UHGV virus genome: UHGV-0000020 | Reading direction: 5' to 3' (one strand) | Length of the DNA: 28,569 nucleotides | DNA from: a virus | In this document: piece by piece, positions 18,884 to 28,569 of the stretch | Layout: every line of letters begins with the position of its first letter | Position numbering within the stretch: position 1 is the stretch's first letter | Position numbers and translations under genes: made by a program | Notes under the pieces: model-generated | What the model was told of the DNA's origin: nothing | The model's input: the letters and a program-made list of their open reading frames with translations, nothing else | The model's database searches: none

Positions 18884-19920
18884 TGAGCAAGAAACGTAAT
18901 AAGCGCCAGCCGCAACCAGAGACCCGCAAACATACCGCCGAGACCGCTCAGAGCATGGAAGCATTCACCTTTGGCGAGCCGACGCCGGTGCTCGATCGCC
19001 GCGACATTCTCGATTATGTCGAATGTATCGATAACGGCCAGTGGTATGAGCCGCCGGTGAGTTTCTCCGGGCTCGCGAAAAGTATGCGCGCCGCCGTACA
19101 CCACAGCTCACCGATTTACGTGAAGCGTAATATTCTGGTATCGACGTACACGCCGCACCCGCTGTTATCCCGTCAGGACTTCAGCCGGTTCGCGCTCGAT
19201 TATCTGGTATTTGGTAACGCCTTTCTCGAAGAGCGTCGAAGCGTCACCGGCAAGCCGCTGAAGTTCGATACCTCCCCGGCCAAATATACCCGACGCGGGG
19301 TGGATGATGATATTTACTGGTATATCCAGAGCTACACGCAGCCGCACCAGTACGCGCCCGGTTCCGTCTTCCATTTGCTTGAGCCGGATATTAATCAGGA
19401 GCTCTACGGTATGCCGGAATACCTGAGCGCGCTCAATTCAGCCTGGCTGAATGAATCCGCGACCCTGTTTCGCCGGAAGTATTACCAGAACGGGGCGCAC
19501 GCCGGTTACATCATGTATGTGACTGACGCCGCGCAGAGCAGCACCGACGTCGAGGCACTACGCAAGGCGATGCGCGACTCGAAAGGGCTCGGCAACTTTA
19601 AGAATCTGTTTTTCTATGCACCAAACGGAAAAGCAGACGGGATTAAAATTGTGCCCCTGAGCGAAGTCGCCACGAAGGATGATTTTTTCAACATCAAAAA
19701 AGTCAGCGCCGCTGACCTGCTGGACGCCCACCGCATCCCGTTCCAGTTGATGGGCGGCAAGCCTGAAAACGTCGGGTCAGTGGGTGACGTTGAGAAGGTG
19801 GCAAAGGTCTTTGTCCGCAATGAGTTAATCCCGCTTCAGGCGCGATTCATGGAGCTGAACGAGTGGGCGGGTCAGGAGATTATCCGCTTCGAAAAATACA
19901 CACTCGAAGACAGCGAATAA
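18883..19920 (+). CDS. Q: Portal protein Q
   Basis: ATG at 18883 in TAATG overlap with P; 345 aa MSKKRNKRQPQPETRKHTAETAQSMEAFTFGEPTPV...; position next to cos. Confidence 0.9.
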   Translation: MSKKRNKRQPQPETRKHTAETAQSMEAFTFGEPTPVLDRRDILDYVECIDNGQWYEPPVSFSGLAKSMRAAVHHSSPIYVKRNILVSTYTPHPLLSRQDFSRFALDYLVFGNAFLEERRSVTGKPLKFDTSPAKYTRRGVDDDIYWYIQSYTQPHQYAPGSVFHLLEPDINQELYGMPEYLSALNSAWLNESATLFRRKYYQNGAHAGYIMYVTDAAQSSTDVEALRKAMRDSKGLGNFKNLFFYAPNGKADGIKIVPLSEVATKDDFFNIKKVSAADLLDAHRIPFQLMGGKPENVGSVGDVEKVAKVFVRNELIPLQARFMELNEWAGQEIIRFEKYTLEDSE

Positions 19921-19930
19921 CCCGCCATAA

Positions 19931-19953
19931 GCCGCCGATACAGGCGGCTTTTT
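19931..19953 (+). terminator. Rho-independent terminator after Q
   Basis: GCCGCC-GATACA-GGCGGC hairpin followed by TTTTT, 11 nt after the Q stop. Confidence 0.8.
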
Positions 19954-20095
19954 CGTACCCGCCACCATACGCCCTCAGAGCGACGACACGCCGTCGCCAA
20001 CAACGCCCACCCAATGACTCACTCAACACCATTACAACGCGACAGCGAGCTGCTGAGGCGCGAGAAAATAAATTAAATACCTGCTCCAGCGCGCA

Positions 20096-20114
20096 ATGCT
20101 ATCCCCGCCTCGCC
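20096..20114. other. cos: cos-like site (cohesive-end region)
   Basis: Minus-strand sequence GGCGAGGCGGGGATAGCA closely resembles the P2 19-nt cohesive end as I recall it (GGCGAGGCGGGGAAAGCAC); located just beyond Q as in P2. Confidence 0.7.
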
Positions 20115-20271
20115 TGCCCGCTTTATGGGTCGGTTTTAATGCAGTTGCATGAACACGTCGGAGCCGCGCCAGCACTGGCGGCGCTCACACATGACAGGGG
20201 AGGAAAACGCATGCAATTCGATGCAATAGCGCATGCAGCGCTAAAAAACGGGGAAAAAGCGGAAAAATGAC

Positions 20272-20299
20272 ATAAAAAAACCGGCATACAGGGTGCCGG
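20272..20299 (-). terminator. Rho-independent (bidirectional) terminator closing the minus-strand accessory operon
   Basis: Hairpin CCGGCA-TACAGGG-TGCCGG (20281-20299) flanked by an A-run on the plus strand, giving hairpin plus U-tract on the minus strand directly after the 33-aa peptide ORF. Confidence 0.75.
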
Positions 20300-20323
20300 T
20301 TTGTGCAGGTATTAAGGGGGGGC

Positions 20324-20425
20324 TTACTGGCCGCGCAATGCTCCAATAATGCTGTTCAGGCAACAACTGGCAATAATCATCAGAAAAATTGTCGTCCACG
20401 GATTTTCATAAACAAGCGATAGCAT
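20324..20425 (-). CDS. Predicted 33-aa single-TM peptide (hypothetical)
   Basis: ATG at 20425 preceded by AGAGGA overlapping the stop of the upstream ORF; MLSLVYENPWTTIFLMIIASCCLNSIIGALRGQ-TAA; 20-residue hydrophobic core; followed by a terminator. Below the size cutoff of the ORF track. Confidence 0.4.
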   Translation of the reverse strand: MLSLVYENPWTTIFLMIIASCCLNSIIGALRGQ

Positions 20426-20434
20426 TTTAATCCT

Positions 20435-20638
20435 CTATTTCATCATTCGAATGTGGTTAAGCAGTTCTTTGACGACCGCACCAAGTTCCTCACCGTTTGT
20501 CTGATGCACCAGGCTATCAGTAAATTTATTAACTTCCCGTGAACTCAGGTCGTGATTGGCTGCGAGGCAAATCATATTCTGCGCCCACTTTTGAAGCCAT
20601 TTGTTATCAACAACATCGGAAGGGACAAGACGCAACAT
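20435..20638 (-). CDS. Hypothetical 67-aa protein
   Basis: First ATG at 20638 (MLRLVPSDVVDNKWLQKWAQNMICLAANHDLSSREVNKFTDSLVHQTNGEELGAVVKELLNHIRMMK) with GAGGT 8 nt upstream; the track ORF start at 20647 is GTG. No family recognised. Confidence 0.5.
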   Translation of the reverse strand: MLRLVPSDVVDNKWLQKWAQNMICLAANHDLSSREVNKFTDSLVHQTNGEELGAVVKELLNHIRMMK

Positions 20639-20848
20639 AGCGCACACCTCGATTAGTCATTTTCAGTCGTATTGAAATTGTTTAAGCAAAGGCATGATAT
20701 GCGTGGAGTGGCAGACGACCAATCGATGAGCGGCGTGCTGTATATGGCACAAAGGAAAACGGCTAACGCCTCGCGGGGCTCGTTGTTCAACCCCGCCAGC
20801 CCTGAAATCAAGTTTCAGTACCGGCGGCGTTTGCGCGCTATTCAGATA

Positions 20849-21079
20849 TTAACGCCAGCTTTCGTCTTCCCAGACTTCCTGAAGGATACTATCCAGCGCT
20901 TCCCTGTCTGAATCTTTGTCGACCCCCATCAACTCGACGCCAGTCATTGAGCCTTTTTTTACCGTGACGCGCGTCGACGGAAAAACTGACTGAATTCTTC
21001 GGGTCAATTCACTTTGAAATGCATCAATGACTGGCTGCCCGATTTTCTGGTCTTTGTCTAACGTGATATTGATATTCAT
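20849..21079 (-). CDS. DinI-family protein
   Basis: 76 aa MNINITLDKDQKIGQPVIDAFQSELTRRIQSVFP...ALDSILQEVWEDESWR aligns along its length with E. coli DinI (ELSRRIQ, FP, ILQETWE motifs). Confidence 0.85.
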   Translation of the reverse strand: MNINITLDKDQKIGQPVIDAFQSELTRRIQSVFPSTRVTVKKGSMTGVELMGVDKDSDREALDSILQEVWEDESWR

Positions 21080-21082
21080 AAC

Positions 21083-21265
21083 CTACTCAGCCTCATAAAA
21101 GAAATCTTCTTCGGTCTCGTTATTTTCGCTATTTGCAAGATCGGCAATGAGAGTGAGCGCGAGCTTTAAGTCTGCTGGTTTGCAGTTCGCTATCAGAGAT
21201 ACCTCGGCTATGAATTGCACACAAGCCCACTTTTGCTGCGTTCGGCTGAAATGTTCCCCAACCAT
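21083..21265 (-). CDS. Hypothetical acidic 60-aa protein, first ORF of LexA-controlled operon
   Basis: ATG at 21265 with GGGAGGG Shine-Dalgarno immediately downstream of the LexA box; ends ...ENNETEEDFFYEAE-TAG; in frame with the DinI-like ORF, separated only by TAG plus one codon. The longer track ORF starts at a GTG upstream of the LexA box. Confidence 0.55.
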   Translation of the reverse strand: MVGEHFSRTQQKWACVQFIAEVSLIANCKPADLKLALTLIADLANSENNETEEDFFYEAE

Positions 21266-21285
21266 GAAATCCCTCCCAATAGGGT

Positions 21286-21305
21286 TACTGTATAAATATA
21301 CAGTA
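21286..21305. promoter_or_regulatory. LexA (SOS) box
   Basis: TACTGTATAAATATACAGTA, a 19/20 match to the TACTGTATATATATACAGTA consensus (CTGT-N8-ACAG), 20 nt upstream of the 60-aa ORF start and next to a TTGCCA -35-like hexamer. Confidence 0.8.
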
Positions 21306-21383
21306 GCACGTATTGGCAAACATGGGGAAGAAAAAAAATACACGCCATCAATGTATCTATCTGATATCGATAAACATTAAATG

Positions 21384-23681
21384 TTAACTCCTTGTTTGTG
21401 GCGGTGTTAACTGCTCTATACGACTCATTATTTGTTCGGCTTTTAATCGTGCAGCCTCACTTTTTGCAGCCTGAGAAGGTGCTGACGGGAACACTTCCCC
21501 GGAAGAAGATCCCCGGCACCATTTGCCGTTTATACAGCTTCGCCCACCGGCCATAAGGTGCAGAGCTTCCCCACGACTGATGGTGATGCCAGTCGTCAGA
21601 TGTATTTCGTCGATAGTTTTTTCTATCGCTGGGTTTTGCTCAGGCGTTCCGTGAACGAAGGCCGGCCTTTTTGGTGGTTTTGGCTTCCTGATTCGTTTTG
21701 CCAATTCGCGTTTTTCTCGTCGGCTTAGTGGTTTTGTTAAATCGAGTTCCGGTGGCTCGCTTTCGCTCCCCGTACAGTTATTGACAGAACTCCGAGAGGG
21801 CGCAGGAGCGCCCTTAACGTCAACGGCCAAATCAACGGCACACTTCGGCACAATTTTCCACTGTGTGAGCCGGGTTAAAATCGGAGTGTCAGCGCCGACG
21901 GCAGAGTCGTACACGCCACGAATGCAGACAGTTTCCTCGCCATACTGATTAAACTCTGCGCGCGGCTCATACAGCGTGCGCACCTGCAAATCGTCACGAC
22001 GGACAAACGGGCCACCCTGTGCATTAACATAGCCAGCCCAATCACCGGCGTCGGCGGCATCATGGACGGCGGCAAACTCAACGCTCAGACCATGTGCGGT
22101 CTCGGTGTCAGCGAGACGACGCAACTCACGGTAGACCGTCACCGGCGCGCCGCCGATAAACTGGAATTGACGGATGTGCCAGCGTGCCGCCCATGCTGAA
22201 ACGGCGGGGGCTGTCTCTTTCAGCAGCTCACCGCTTTCGTCATCGGTTTCGCCATCGAGAGCATAGCCGTCGATATTTTTTGAAATGTATTTAGCAACAT
22301 AGCCGGTAGCGCTGCCCTTTTCAGGGTCAATGGCCTCGGCATGAAAGCGCGCTTTTTTGGCTTTGTCGCTTCTCAGCTCGTGGCGGTCTTCCTCCCACGC
22401 ATAATCACGGATGATGAGGCGGACGCGCTCGACGTCTTCCGGCAACATGAACATAAGCATGTGCCAGTGCGGCGTGCCGTCGTGATGGGGCTCGGCTACA
22501 CGGATGCCGAAAATGCGGATTTCTTCCCGATGCAGCTTGGCGCGAATGCGCGCCCAAAGGCCGGTTAGATAGCTCTGCGTGTCCGAAGGGCTGGCACCGT
22601 TCCATTTGCTGTTACGGTATCCCGCTTTGGTGGTGGCGTGATATTTGGACGGTGCAGTCAGGGTGTAAAACTCCCCGACATATCCGAGCTCATTGCAGAT
22701 ATTTTCAAACCCACGAATGCGGGTCATCAGCTCGCAGCGACGTATCGCAGGGTTAGCGACCGAACCGTCGTATTTTTCAATCAGGCTGATGCGGTTGCCG
22801 TCTTCGTCTTCGAGATCCAGCCCCTTGAGAAATTCGCGCGTGCGGCGCTTCTGCTCACGCCAGTCGGTCACGCAGTTCTTACTCGCGTATGCGTGTCTTT
22901 TTTTGCTGACATTTCCGACTGCGATTTGCAAATGTTCGCGCCATGCAGCCGCAATGCGACGCAGGCGACCACGCCACCACGCATCGTTAAACATGCGAGC
23001 GATAGCCGGGGCGATTTCATCCTCACCGACATATTTCTTTGCCACCCGCTCCCAATGCGGGGGGGTAACGTTGAATTGCAGGGAAATAAAACCAGCCCGC
23101 ATGTACCAGGTGTACAGCGTTTTAAGCTCGCTAAATCCGCTGTCATCAATGTCAGCCAGTTCAGCGCGAATAAAATTTGCGATATCAGCGGCCAGCAGGT
23201 CAATATCGGCGCGCGACATGTCTGGGAGGCGGTTATATCTGGCGATCATATTGACCATGCGTGATGCCAGATATTGCAAAAGCTCAGTATCAAAATGACC
23301 ACCGAAAACAGCGGCGGATACATTGCTGTTGATACCTGCACACTCGTATTTTTTTGCGACCAGTTCAAGACGCGGCAATGTCTTTTTGCAGAAGCTGATT
23401 AAAAAAGCATTGGCTCGTTGACTGCCTTGATTTTGCTCCAGCACCGCAGCGGTGCGATAAACATCAAAACGCACGCACTCAGGCTGGAGAGAAAGCATCT
23501 TTTTCGCATGCAGCAAAGCCGCGAACATACGGTCGCGGCGATACTGTTGCTCATAGGTAAGATATGGGCTGGCTATTGCCGACCGTGGAGCGTTCCACGG
23601 GTAAGCATAGTTAACGCTTACCCGCATAGCTCGCCCATTTGCCGGCGCTGTATACTTAACATCACATAGCCGGGAGCCCAT
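21384..23681 (-). CDS. A: Replication initiation protein A (rolling-circle nickase)
   Basis: 765 aa; ...FGIRVAEPHHDGTPHWHMLMFM... and ...GYVAKYISKNIDGYALDGE... are hallmark motifs of P2 gpA. Confidence 0.92.
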   Translation of the reverse strand: MGSRLCDVKYTAPANGRAMRVSVNYAYPWNAPRSAIASPYLTYEQQYRRDRMFAALLHAKKMLSLQPECVRFDVYRTAAVLEQNQGSQRANAFLISFCKKTLPRLELVAKKYECAGINSNVSAAVFGGHFDTELLQYLASRMVNMIARYNRLPDMSRADIDLLAADIANFIRAELADIDDSGFSELKTLYTWYMRAGFISLQFNVTPPHWERVAKKYVGEDEIAPAIARMFNDAWWRGRLRRIAAAWREHLQIAVGNVSKKRHAYASKNCVTDWREQKRRTREFLKGLDLEDEDGNRISLIEKYDGSVANPAIRRCELMTRIRGFENICNELGYVGEFYTLTAPSKYHATTKAGYRNSKWNGASPSDTQSYLTGLWARIRAKLHREEIRIFGIRVAEPHHDGTPHWHMLMFMLPEDVERVRLIIRDYAWEEDRHELRSDKAKKARFHAEAIDPEKGSATGYVAKYISKNIDGYALDGETDDESGELLKETAPAVSAWAARWHIRQFQFIGGAPVTVYRELRRLADTETAHGLSVEFAAVHDAADAGDWAGYVNAQGGPFVRRDDLQVRTLYEPRAEFNQYGEETVCIRGVYDSAVGADTPILTRLTQWKIVPKCAVDLAVDVKGAPAPSRSSVNNCTGSESEPPELDLTKPLSRREKRELAKRIRKPKPPKRPAFVHGTPEQNPAIEKTIDEIHLTTGITISRGEALHLMAGGRSCINGKWCRGSSSGEVFPSAPSQAAKSEAARLKAEQIMSRIEQLTPPQTRS

Positions 23682-25194: not shown

Positions 25195-25704
25195 TCACAC
25201 CAAACCGAACGTTGCGCCAATGCCAGTCATGGTATCGACAACACTCGACATTGCCGGGTTGGACTGAAGCCGAGCATGTAACGCCAGTGCAGACAGTGAC
25301 AGCATGCGAATACCAGAATTAACGCTTTCGACCATGCTGTGCTTACGGTCAGAGGTCAGACGTTCAGTCGATACAGCACCGGTTGCCAGCTCGCCAAGTT
25401 CACTCATTGCACGCATGACATAGGTCTGAAGTTTGTCTTTTGCTAACTCATTCACTGGCACACAAGGAAGACAATGAATCTGAGCGAGAAAGCCATCAAC
25501 GAGGGTTGAGTCTTCAGTCAGGTCAGTCAGTAGCCACAATTCAGGCGGTGTGAACTGGTGAGGCTGTTCCGGGTTGAGCTTGTTACGTAACGTTTGAACG
25601 TTCATACCCGCACGCTCGGCCAGCTTCGCCATGTTGTGACGCTGCGCAAAGGCCCGACATGCTTCGTCGAAGTGGGGATGTTTGGAAACCTGAAAATCAA
25701 ACAT
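25195..25704 (-). CDS. B: Replication protein B-like (start 25704 or 25728)
   Basis: About 169 aa (MFDFQVSKHPHFDEACRAFAQRHNMAKLAERAGMNVQTLRNKLNPEQPHQFTPPELWLLTDL...), at the P2 B position in the early operon upstream of A; GGAG Shine-Dalgarno before ATG 25704. Confidence 0.65.
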   Translation of the reverse strand: MFDFQVSKHPHFDEACRAFAQRHNMAKLAERAGMNVQTLRNKLNPEQPHQFTPPELWLLTDLTEDSTLVDGFLAQIHCLPCVPVNELAKDKLQTYVMRAMSELGELATGAVSTERLTSDRKHSMVESVNSGIRMLSLSALALHARLQSNPAMSSVVDTMTGIGATFGLV

Positions 25705-25736
25705 GTTGAAATCTCCGTCAACTTGCATAATCAAGT

Positions 25737-26102
25737 TCAGTTAAGCGCCTGGGTGTCGGCGGGGATATAACGACAATCGATAGCTTGCTGCGTCAATTTG
25801 TCGCGCCATGCTTTGACGTTGACTAATGTGCGGCCGCGTTTATTGGCCTCTTCTTTGTTTGAGAAATCTTTGGTTGGAGCCTTGAGTAATATGCCTTTGT
25901 CGAGCCATTGCCACACAAGGCGCTCGCTGATTCCACGGGTTGCCGCGAAGTCTTCGACTGTCATAGTGTCTGACATAGCGGAGCGAATCAGGCTTTCCAT
26001 TTTTGGCAGCATTGCATCAACGATGGCCGCTAGCTGAGCGGGTTCTAAACGTAAAGTTTGATTTTGTGAGTTATCAAGCGATGTTGATTTTGCATCTGAC
26101 AT
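25737..26102 (-). CDS. First early-operon gene: putative Cox/Apl-like HTH regulator or excisionase
   Basis: 121 aa ORF immediately downstream of the candidate lytic promoter, with a helix-turn-helix-like segment MTVEDFAATRGISERLVWQWLDKGILL; occupies the cox/apl position. Functional call is by position and motif only. Confidence 0.45.
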   Translation of the reverse strand: MSDAKSTSLDNSQNQTLRLEPAQLAAIVDAMLPKMESLIRSAMSDTMTVEDFAATRGISERLVWQWLDKGILLKAPTKDFSNKEEANKRGRTLVNVKAWRDKLTQQAIDCRYIPADTQALN

Positions 26103-26223: not shown

Positions 26224-27087
26224 ATGAGTTCTGGGCTTGATGTTCAGTGGCGCATCGGTGCGGCAAATGGAGTTTTAGAGCGCTTGATGTCTGCGTATGG
26301 CGTGAAGATGCAGAAAGATTTGGCTGACCTGCTGGGGATTGCAAAACATAGCGTGAGTGGTTGGGTTCAGCGCGATGCGATACCGGGCAATATCATCGTG
26401 AGATGCTGTCTCGATACTGGCGCTGATATCAACTGGCTTGTAAATGGTGAACTTGCAAATGCAAACCTCGATCTCCAGCATAGTCGTTTGAAAGGCAAAG
26501 AACTCTATGACGAAATAATGACTAACGGTGGTAAAACCGTATTACGCCGTATTTTGGATGCGTATGGTTTTACGATGCAAAAAGAACTTGGTGATTTGCT
26601 AGGCATTTCCTCTGGCACCATCAGCACTTGGGTTCGTCGAGAGTTCTTTCCGGGGGATGTAGTAGTCGCCTGTGCACTTGATACCGGAGTTTCCCTTGAG
26701 TGGTTGGCTACTGGCAAAGGGCAAATGCTGGATAGTTCATCGAGAAAAAATGCTATTCAGCAAGTAATAAAAAAATGTCGATTAGAAGCCGGAGAACTCA
26801 AAGATGCAGGTGAGTGGCATCCTGACCCTTCAATGGTTCCCGACGCTCACGACAAGCTCATTTATATAGTTGGTGTTACATCATCTTGGTTAATAGATAA
26901 AGCAGTGCTGAATGTATCTAATGGCAGATGGCTCATAAGCATTGATGGTGCTTTTGACGTTTTCGACGTGATTCGATTACCAGGCGGCAAGGTTCGCCTA
27001 TCAAATAAAAATGCAGAATTTGAATGTAATCTTGCAGATATCACACCAGCCGGGGCTGTTATTTTTACCTTGGAAAAACACATATAA
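26224..27087 (+). CDS. cI: Immunity repressor, 186 CI-type, with tandemly duplicated N-terminal DNA-binding domain
   Basis: 287 aa; two homologous about 65-aa repeats (residues ~13-75 and ~103-166; LERLMSAYGVKMQKDLADLLGI...SGWVQRDAIPG...CCLDTGADINWL vs LRRILDAYGFTMQKELGDLLGI...STWVRREFFPG...CALDTGVSLEWL) resembling the phage 186 CI N-terminal domain, plus a C-terminal domain; divergent from the early operon. Confidence 0.75.
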   Translation: MSSGLDVQWRIGAANGVLERLMSAYGVKMQKDLADLLGIAKHSVSGWVQRDAIPGNIIVRCCLDTGADINWLVNGELANANLDLQHSRLKGKELYDEIMTNGGKTVLRRILDAYGFTMQKELGDLLGISSGTISTWVRREFFPGDVVVACALDTGVSLEWLATGKGQMLDSSSRKNAIQQVIKKCRLEAGELKDAGEWHPDPSMVPDAHDKLIYIVGVTSSWLIDKAVLNVSNGRWLISIDGAFDVFDVIRLPGGKVRLSNKNAEFECNLADITPAGAVIFTLEKHI

Positions 27088-27095
27088 GGATAGTT

Positions 27096-27488
27096 ATGAA
27101 ACGTTCTATTTTTGCAGTTGCTTTGCTCGCTTCTTTCTCAGTATTTGCACAGCCATCTAATTTATCTGTTCTGAAAAAATCGATGAATGAGATGCAACCA
27201 ATTTCAATTGAGGAAAGTGATAGCACCGTTGTGATTGTGCTCAACACCGCAAGCGTTACGCCAGAAATCTACGACACTGCCATTTTAGGTATCTGCAACC
27301 CCGTTTGGTTGAATAAAGAAAACACGGCATACCTTAAAAATACTAAAGAAGTACATGTGCTGAATAAATTTAGTGCCATCGGATATGCACTTGAGAAGCC
27401 ACGCGCGACATGTGAAAAGGCAGGCCAAGAACAACCAAAACAATCCCAAATTACAATTCTTTCAAACACTCATACTCTTAGTCTGTAG
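27096..27488 (+). CDS. Secreted or periplasmic protein of unknown function (moron)
   Basis: 130 aa with Sec-type signal peptide MKRSIFAVALLASFSVFA and likely cleavage before QPS; AAGGA Shine-Dalgarno; 8 nt after the cI stop and upstream of int; AT-rich. Confidence 0.7.
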   Translation: MKRSIFAVALLASFSVFAQPSNLSVLKKSMNEMQPISIEESDSTVVIVLNTASVTPEIYDTAILGICNPVWLNKENTAYLKNTKEVHVLNKFSAIGYALEKPRATCEKAGQEQPKQSQITILSNTHTLSL

Positions 27489-27519: not shown

Positions 27520-28569
27520 ATGACTGTAAGCAAACAAAAAAACGGCAAATGGTTATGTGAGCTCTATCCAAACGGTCGGGAAGGGCGGCGTATACGTCGA
27601 CACTTCAACACCAAAGGTGAGGCCGAGGCTTTTGAGCTTTACACAAAAAATGAAAGTGAAGACAAGCCGTGGCTCGGAAAGAAAGAAGACCGACGGCGTT
27701 TAAGTGAAATTATTCAGCTTTGGCATAATTTACACGGACAGGCTCTAGTCGCGAGCAAATCAAGATTGGCTAAATTGCAGATTGTGTGTAATGGCCTTGG
27801 CGACCCTATCGCATCCCGTCTCACAGCTAAGGATTGGGCTCACTATCGTGATAAACGGCTTCGTGGTGAAATTGATAATGGGTATCACAAAGACCCTGAG
27901 AAATGGATAGCTAAACCGATTACGGTCAACCGTGAACAGCAGTATTTAGAGGCCGTTTTCAATGAGCTAAAGCGGTTAGGGGAATGGTCGCTACCAAACC
28001 CTCTCGATGGCATTCGCGTCTTTAAAGAAGCTGAAAAGGAAATGTCATGGCTAACGATCGAGCAAATACCTCAACTTTTACAGGCATGTCATCAGTATGG
28101 ACACGAAGACCTTACACAGATTGTTGAGATTTGTTTAGCTACCGGCGCGAGATGGAGTGAGGCAGAGCGATTGACTCGTCCGCAGCTTTCGCCCTACAAA
28201 CTGACTTTCACAAAAACGAAAGGCAAAAAAAATCGTACAGTCCCGATCACAAAATGGCTTTACGAAAAATTATCCACACGACAGGGGCGAATGTTTAAGC
28301 CTTGCTATCAGGAGTTCAAAAAAATGCTTTTGCTCACTGATATCGAACTGACGGAAGGCCAGAAAACCCATGTTTTACGCCACACCTTTGGTGCGCATTT
28401 TATGATGAACGGCGGTAACATCCTTGTTCTTCAGAAGATACTTGGTCACGCTAACATTCGTGAAACAATGAAGTATTCGCACTTTGCACCAGACCATCTT
28501 GAGCAGGCTGTTACATTGAATCCCTTGTCGTTAGCTATTGGCGACAAAGTGGCGACAGAGGTTGCGTAA
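27520..28569 (+). CDS. int: Tyrosine integrase (P2 Int family)
   Basis: 349 aa; N-terminal GREGRRIRRHFNTKGEAEAFE arm-binding-like domain and C-terminal catalytic motifs ...LATGARWSEAERL... HVLRHTFGAHFMMNGG...LGHANIRETMKYSHF; TAA at 28567-28569. Confidence 0.92.
   Translation: MTVSKQKNGKWLCELYPNGREGRRIRRHFNTKGEAEAFELYTKNESEDKPWLGKKEDRRRLSEIIQLWHNLHGQALVASKSRLAKLQIVCNGLGDPIASRLTAKDWAHYRDKRLRGEIDNGYHKDPEKWIAKPITVNREQQYLEAVFNELKRLGEWSLPNPLDGIRVFKEAEKEMSWLTIEQIPQLLQACHQYGHEDLTQIVEICLATGARWSEAERLTRPQLSPYKLTFTKTKGKKNRTVPITKWLYEKLSTRQGRMFKPCYQEFKKMLLLTDIELTEGQKTHVLRHTFGAHFMMNGGNILVLQKILGHANIRETMKYSHFAPDHLEQAVTLNPLSLAIGDKVATEVA

Follow-up and report, generated by a model that had tools for sequence, protein, structure and literature searches.

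The window analysed here is the whole 28,569-nucleotide (nt) stretch of the virus genome UHGV-0000020. On its minus strand, beside a phage replication gene, a LexA box (SOS box) is followed by a short acidic open reading frame (ORF), tumA, which ends in TAG, and by a DinI-like ORF, tumB, which begins 3 nt further on in the same frame. We conclude, with a probability of about 0.9, that this module is the SOS operon of a 186/PSP3-like prophage of the P2 family and that tumA and tumB are two separate genes. The arrangement is already known: it has been described for PSP3 and Fels-2 as a split tumA/tumB SOS antirepressor module, and it is ordinary rather than new. Along the strand, the LexA box and promoter come first and are followed by tumA, tumB, a conserved hairpin, an ORF resembling PSP3 gp37, an ORF of 33 amino acids (aa), a terminator-like hairpin, and cos. 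The original prediction, made from the sequence alone, had outlined the module as 21077-21307, a range that rightly spans the LexA box, tumA and the junction and omits the body of tumB (20849-21079).

The SOS promoter and the two ORFs

The LexA box, TACTGTATATTTATACAGTA (21286-21305, minus strand), has one mismatch to the consensus TACTGTATATATATACAGTA, in agreement with the 19 of 20 matches first claimed for it, and it was the sole match in the window at three or fewer mismatches, where 0 were expected by chance (100 shuffles). When aligned with phage 186, it matched the annotated LexA site of promoter p95 base for base. In the 186 record (U32222), p95 is annotated as 'SOS-dependent transcription of SOS operon', with the LexA site overlapping the -10 element. 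The SOS promoter was not called by a generic sigma-70 scan, and its position was placed through the alignment to p95: as the p95 equivalent, it would occupy 21300-21329 (minus strand), with a -35 element TTCCCC (21329-21324), an 18-nt spacer and a -10 element TACTGT (21305-21300) that overlaps the LexA box. The annotated p95 elements are TTCACA and TACTGT. The promoter block TTTGCCAATACGTGC followed by the LexA box is near-identical in the window, 186, PSP3, vB_EcoM-613R3 (613R3) and RCIP0057, and LexA would be expected to bind the box in the window. The box lies just downstream of replication gene A (gpA, 765 aa; 21384-23681, minus strand), on the side of cos. The sequence GGCGAGGCGGGGATAGCAT (20096-20114, minus strand), which on comparison with the 19-nt P2 cohesive end shows two mismatches, is the cos sequence, and its position makes the SOS module cos-proximal as in 186.

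The tumA gene (21083-21265, minus strand, including the TAG stop at 21083-21085) starts with ATG at 21265-21263 and has a ribosome-binding site, GGGAGGG, at 21277-21271. Its product, MVGEHFSRTQQKWACVQFIAEVSLIANCKPADLKLALTLIADLANSENNETEEDFFYEAE, has 60 residues, 11 of them acidic (D/E) and 4 basic (K/R), so that the 60-aa acidic ORF ending at 21085-21083 had been read correctly. A spacer codon, GTT (21080-21082, minus strand), keeps the two ORFs in frame. The tumB gene (20849-21079, minus strand) starts, as predicted, with the ATG at 21079-21077 and encodes a 76-aa protein of the DinI family. TumB matched the Pfam DinI profile PF06183 with an expect value (E) of 2e-18 and 66.8 bits (gathering cut-off 24.2) over positions 4-62 of 63, and phrog_189 with an E of 8e-35. 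Reading through the TAG would give a product of 138 aa as computed, which is the length originally estimated. With E. coli DinI (PDB 1GHH), TumB aligned over DinI residues 1-73 at an E of 1e-7, a stretch that takes in the acidic ILQExWE helix region near the C-terminus; relative to the E. coli protein (1GHH, 7YWA), TumB, which is encoded by the phage, lacks a few C-terminal residues and is about one-third identical by eye.

At 92% identity, TumB matched 186 Tum over residues 71-146, and the tumB ATG falls exactly on one of the annotated internal starts of 186 tum, that of Tum95.5, a 76-aa product with a GTG start that is annotated as 'modulates SOS induction'. The 146-aa Tum itself carries the annotation 'expression repressed by LexA; inhibits CI DNA binding', and the portion of PMC3121763 that cites Shearwin et al. 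1998 gives Tum as a LexA-repressed antirepressor. A DinI similarity of Tum had been mentioned in the original prediction; it was confirmed by our alignment, by the 186 record and by PMC3121763 (Lemire, Figueroa-Bossi, Bossi, PLoS Genet 2011), where the second half of 186 Tum is reported to be significantly identical to DinI. Given its membership of the DinI family and the annotation of Tum95.5, TumB most likely modulates RecA filaments and hence the strength or timing of the SOS signal. The likeness to 186 also includes a LexA box over the promoter -10 just after gene A, the succession of an antirepressor module and a DinI-like module, a DinI part that is also made alone (Tum95.5), and a target CI with the same Pfam domains. 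The two differ in that Tum of 186 forms one polypeptide of 146 aa, in which a linker of about 10 residues takes the place of the stop in the window; in addition, the N-terminal halves are too diverged for BLASTP, and orf97 lies downstream in 186 and not in the window.

PSP3 has the same layout as the window, namely a 183-nt ORF, a 3-nt gap and an in-frame DinI-like ORF. In its record (AY135486), tumA is annotated as 'similar to 5' end 186 tum; UV induction of prophage' and tumB as 'similar to dinI and 3' end of 186 tum'. TumA of PSP3 and TumA of the window are 92% identical. In both phages the module lies between replication gene A and cos, begins with the LexA box and promoter block, and runs from a 60-aa TumA through TAG and 3 nt to the in-frame ATG of a DinI-like TumB; both also have a gp37-like ORF downstream and a CI repressor with two helix-turn-helix (HTH) domains. 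The window differs from PSP3 in having a TumB of the 186 type (tumB DNA about 50-58% identical to PSP3), in its spacer codon (GTT vs ATT in PSP3), and in having no gp38 homologue. Promoter and tumA DNA were 88-98% identical to PSP3 and 613R3, and from the tumB start on the best relative was 186 (78-92%), whereas identity to PSP3 fell to about 50%. Because the similarity profiles switch near 21070-21020, we regard the module as a mosaic with a breakpoint near the tumB start.

By megablast against phage records, the same region was found in Salmonella phages PSP3, SEN1, SI22 and SW9, Escherichia phages vB_EcoM-613R3 and Midge, and Klebsiella phage RCIP0057. The window itself was absent from a set of 5426 complete E. 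coli genomes; related sequence was present at the tum locus in 171 of them, the closest being 83% identical, and among the E. coli matches listed a hypothetical ORF adjoins the DinI-like gene. Codon differences were 12 synonymous to 5 non-synonymous for tumA between relatives, and 28 synonymous to 6 non-synonymous for tumB against 186; since divergence is mainly synonymous, both ORFs are real, constrained genes. The proposal of an SOS- and LexA-controlled, cos-proximal Tum-like module is thus upheld by homology to p95, its LexA site and tum in 186, and to tumA and tumB in PSP3.

Published work on relatives agrees with this picture. The passage of PMC3121763 that cites Bunny et al. 2002 describes the tum region of PSP3 and Fels-2 as split by a stop codon, and in the P2-like prophage of E. 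coli HS, induction is blocked by deletion of tum or by a non-cleavable LexA (PMC12055606). The Gifsy dinI-gfoA/gftA operons (PMC3121763) are likewise LexA-controlled and encode a small antirepressor and a DinI homologue as separate genes; however, dinI comes first there, antirepressors and repressors alike show no sequence relationship, and these are lambdoid phages.

From these comparisons, the following course of events can be proposed. In the lysogen, LexA would occupy its box, which overlaps the -10 element of the promoter that follows replication gene A. DNA damage leads to activated RecA and to self-cleavage of LexA. With LexA lost, the SOS operon would be derepressed and transcribed, as its box and its likeness to p95 suggest. 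TumA would then bind a CI of the 186/PSP3 type and block its binding to the operator, so that the lytic promoter is turned on; such an action is published for 186 Tum and reported second-hand for PSP3 TumA. TumB would be translated separately from its own ATG, 3 nt past the tumA stop, probably by coupled termination and reinitiation, and would act on RecA filaments as DinI does, thereby tuning the SOS signal.

The stop codon between tumA and tumB

The original prediction had offered an amber-interrupted gene, two separate genes or a suppression-dependent switch as explanations for the in-frame TAG. Comparative data support two separate genes, which is also the published view (PMC3121763). A search of 5.8 billion proteins with TumA returned 188 clusters, which came from a wide range of genera, among them Escherichia, Salmonella, Klebsiella, Cronobacter, Citrobacter, Enterobacter, Yokenella, Kosakonia, Pluralibacter, Buttiauxella and Atlantibacter. 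Of the 120 matches listed, nearly all were of 60-61 aa, and none was a protein of about 138 aa. The TumA core, KWACVQFIAEVSLIANCKPxDLKLALxLIADLA, is near-invariant and the acidic tail variable. When 1.84 billion representative proteins were searched exhaustively with a profile, 35 members of the TumA family were obtained, almost all of 46-87 aa, with no TumA-DinI fusion among them. Two longer members, P0268 (137 aa) and P0263 (109 aa), were considered as DinI fusions and rejected on inspection of their sequences. After the commonest Salmonella TumA (P0043, which the collection indexes in over 3600 blocks) come HEPN and GmrSD genes in the opposite orientation, and stand-alone N-terminal halves of the 186 Tum type (63-78 aa), located after gene A, are followed by a DNA methylase, without DinI.

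We surveyed the junction at 28 loci (L005-L032), each from a different species-level genome. A CTGT-N8-ACAG box was present 35-41 nt upstream of the tumA ATG at all of them, and the end position of TumA was shared by 27 (59-61 aa), the remaining copy being truncated. The stop codon itself varied: TAG at 17 loci, TAA at 7 and TGA at 4. A DinI-like ORF followed tumA at 7 of the 28 loci. Five of these had it in frame after a 3-nt gap (four with TAG and one, L018, with TAA), and two had it out of frame, after 2 nt at L024 and 13 nt at L029. At the other 21 loci, DinI was absent within 1.5 kb of tumA; 12 of these use TAG, which is then followed by short, unconserved in-frame sequence. The spacer in relatives is ATT, TTT or GCG, or else is replaced by the 2-nt or 13-nt gap. 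TAG, 3 nt and ATG occur in the same succession in PSP3, vB_EcoM-613R3, RCIP0057 and L005-L008, and L042-L045 have the same 3-nt gap as judged from called gene coordinates only. At L011 and L013, tumA of the enterobacterial type was found in contigs labelled as a 'Bacillota bacterium' metagenome-assembled genome and 'Chryseobacterium sp.', which probably reflects contamination or mis-binning.

We conclude from this comparison of sequences that TumA is an autonomous, LexA-linked gene product to which the DinI module is an optional and exchangeable addition. The in-frame stop is a legacy of shared ancestry with the fused 186 gene and no regulatory device. An amber-interrupted gene does not fit with a TumA that stands alone at 60-61 aa in about 188 clusters and at the 28 species-level loci.

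It could be argued that read-through of the TAG is programmed or depends on suppression, in which case UAG would be read by a suppressor or near-cognate tRNA and a 138-aa TumA-X-V-TumB fusion would be the real inducer or an additional one, with induction dependent on the level of read-through. The ORFs are indeed in frame with one sense codon between them in the window, PSP3, 613R3, RCIP0057 and L005-L008, the fused form is functional in 186, and UAG ends tumA at 17 of 28 loci even though it is the rarest stop codon in enterobacteria. Nevertheless, we consider this reading very improbable. TAA and TGA also end tumA, and at L018 TAA does so within the in-frame arrangement; at L024 and L029 DinI is out of frame; and 12 of the 21 loci that lack DinI still have TAG. 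As described below, it is TumA and not TumB that co-occurs with the type of CI, and the window mixes a PSP3-type tumA with a 186-type tumB. In addition, ARAGORN found no tRNA gene in the window, hence no phage-borne suppressor, and PMC3121763, in the passage that concerns PSP3, places antirepressor activity in the upstream gene alone. Across the 28 loci neither the identity of the stop, nor the frame, nor the downstream ORF is conserved among homologues, and neither a fused product nor an element-supplied suppressor tRNA was seen among the TumA-family matches and the genes of the window. A suppression-dependent switch is therefore not what these loci indicate, since their stops vary and most of them have no DinI.

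A milder version, in which low-level natural read-through of UAG yields a little of a 138-aa, 186-Tum-like fusion beside TumA and TumB and tunes the threshold of induction, seems to us equally improbable. If it were true, the fusion would act as a third product in the manner of the nested Tum products made by 186, and the excess of TAG would represent selection for a leaky stop. As it is, the TAG excess may be inherited or may reflect some local constraint.

TumA, the CI repressor and the integrity of the genes

The presumed target of TumA is the cI immunity repressor (287 aa; 26224-27087, plus strand), which has two tandem HTH domains (Phage_CI_repr, PF07022) and one C-terminal domain (Phage_CI_C, PF16452). 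It is 81% identical to PSP3 CI. The 287-aa form is common to PSP3, SEN1, 613R3, SI22/SW9, RCIP0057 and Midge, with 69-81% identity over 94-100% of the length. The CI of 186 has 192 aa and one HTH domain, compared with the two copies in the window. Among 50,697 phage records, those with a PSP3-type TumA were exactly those with a CI at least 69% identical to that of the window (10 of 10), and the next-best CI outside these 10 records was at most 37% identical. Such co-occurrence of TumA type and CI type is as expected of a cognate antirepressor-repressor pair. TumB does not track CI in this way, as the window itself illustrates by its pairing of tumA and tumB of different types. Together with the homology to 186 and PSP3, this leads us to presume that TumA is the CI antirepressor of the phage in the window and would bind its CI. 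Beside cI, the immunity region, which is of the 186/PSP3 type, encodes a Cox/Apl-like protein (25737-26102) and a CII (CP76) protein (25195-25734).

At the level of the protein, TumA matched the phrog_1993 profile with an E of 7e-31, and residues 1-61 of 186 Tum matched it with an E of 1e-22. A Pfam search gave no family for TumA. AlphaFold2, run on the TumA alignment, predicted helices at residues 3-25 and 30-48, followed by an acidic tail without order, at a mean predicted local distance difference test score (pLDDT) of 67; because this confidence is moderate, the model was kept out of fold searches.

Several results weigh against our conclusion. Both ORFs were to be aligned with 186 Tum and DinI, and while TumB aligned with both, TumA and 186 Tum gave no pairwise BLASTP alignment. 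With hhalign the match was weak (53% probability, 32 columns, E 1.4e-4), the aligned core being VQFIAEVS...LALTLIADLA in TumA and VEMIARLT...IALNLIAEIA in 186 Tum. The homology of TumA to the N-terminus of 186 Tum thus rests on the PHROG profile and synteny. The statement in PMC3121763 that the antirepressor activity of PSP3 resides in the upstream gene appears in that passage as a personal communication and is second-hand. For tumB, GAGG at a distance of 11 nt makes a weak or distant Shine-Dalgarno sequence, and the way in which tumB is translated is for that reason something we infer. Finally, the over-representation of TAG among tumA stops holds whether or not DinI follows.

If TumA were not the antirepressor, induction would proceed through TumB or a downstream gene, for example the 70-aa ORF, and TumA would have another SOS-linked role. 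The lack of a Pfam family for TumA would permit this, as would the fact that its role in this phage is deduced from sequence comparison. However, no gene other than tumA is always linked to the LexA box, and TumA co-occurs with the CI type, whereas the genes downstream differ from one relative to the next (a methylase, a kinase, defence genes or nothing), and the published PSP3 statement, as it stands in the relevant passage of PMC3121763, points to the upstream gene. We thus hold this alternative to be slightly less probable still than read-through.

That the TAG arose by faulty sequencing or by a recent nonsense mutation within a single 186-like tum, leaving a pseudogene and a non-inducible prophage, can be dismissed almost entirely, for although 186 has one uninterrupted ORF over the equivalent region, the same stop position recurs in dozens of independent sequences with 52-95% TumA identity (as TAG, 3 nt and ATG in PSP3, 613R3, RCIP0057 and L005-L008), the tumB start is that used in 186 for Tum95.5, divergence in both ORFs is mostly synonymous, and the N-terminal half comes from the PSP3 lineage, in which only a short protein exists.

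The rest of the operon and the place of the module in the phage

Just downstream of tumB, a conserved hairpin is followed by a near-invariant 30-nt block, GGTTGAACAACGAGCnnnGCGAGGCGTTAG (20763-20837 together, minus strand). This element was found downstream of tumA or tumB at 14 related loci (L001, 2396-2470; L002, 2497-2571; L003-L008, L012, L013, L024, L026, L030 and L031), and 7 of the 20 predicted pairs of the hairpin showed compensatory changes. In PSP3 a further copy, itself diverged, appears to follow tumB immediately, which would place gp37 between two copies. Rfam gave no match over the whole window at gathering thresholds and nothing credible over 19900-21400 at permissive thresholds. 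The element may serve as a partial terminator, stabilise RNA or mark the boundary of a module.

The next ORF (20435-20647, minus strand) resembles PSP3 gp37, matches phrog_2454 (E 4e-29) and occupies the same position as PSP3 orf37. It encodes 70 aa from a GTG or 67 aa from the ATG at 20638, which has GAGG upstream; the 70-aa form had no match in Pfam. It is likely a distal gene of the SOS operon, with which the distal ORFs would be co-transcribed. A 33-aa hydrophobic ORF, MLSLVYENPWTTIFLMIIASCCLNSIIGALRGQ (20324-20425, minus strand), has a GAGGA ribosome-binding site and immediately precedes the operon terminator; its product may be a small membrane peptide under SOS control. The terminator-like hairpin (20278-20302, minus strand) has 9 pairs, a 7-nt loop and a TTTTTTT tail, and it stands in the position of 186 t95b. 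In relatives, the slot downstream of tumA/tumB carries cargo: a DNA methylase (L033-L038), HEPN_RiboL-PSP and GmrSD defence genes (L039-L041) or a Ser/Thr protein kinase (L042).

The window is continuous across cos and has an integrase gene at its right end (27520-28569). Because of this continuity, it represents a prophage or a circularly permuted assembly and no genome defined by virion ends. Between cI and the integrase gene, a 130-aa ORF (27096-27488, plus strand) with a signal-peptide-like N-terminus, MKRSIFAVALLASFSVFAQ..., and no Pfam match is probably a lysogenic-conversion (moron) gene.

The module marks the prophage as one that a LexA-controlled antirepressor probably makes SOS-inducible, as in 186, PSP3 and Fels-2 but not in P2. 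Its annotation should carry two products, TumA (presumed antirepressor) and TumB (DinI-like), and no pseudogene; beyond that it has little significance. The survey adds modest context, in that the small antirepressor appears as the constant, LexA-linked part, which tracks the type of CI, and the DinI module as optional and exchangeable. On this evidence, the fused Tum of 186 is the exception rather than the rule.

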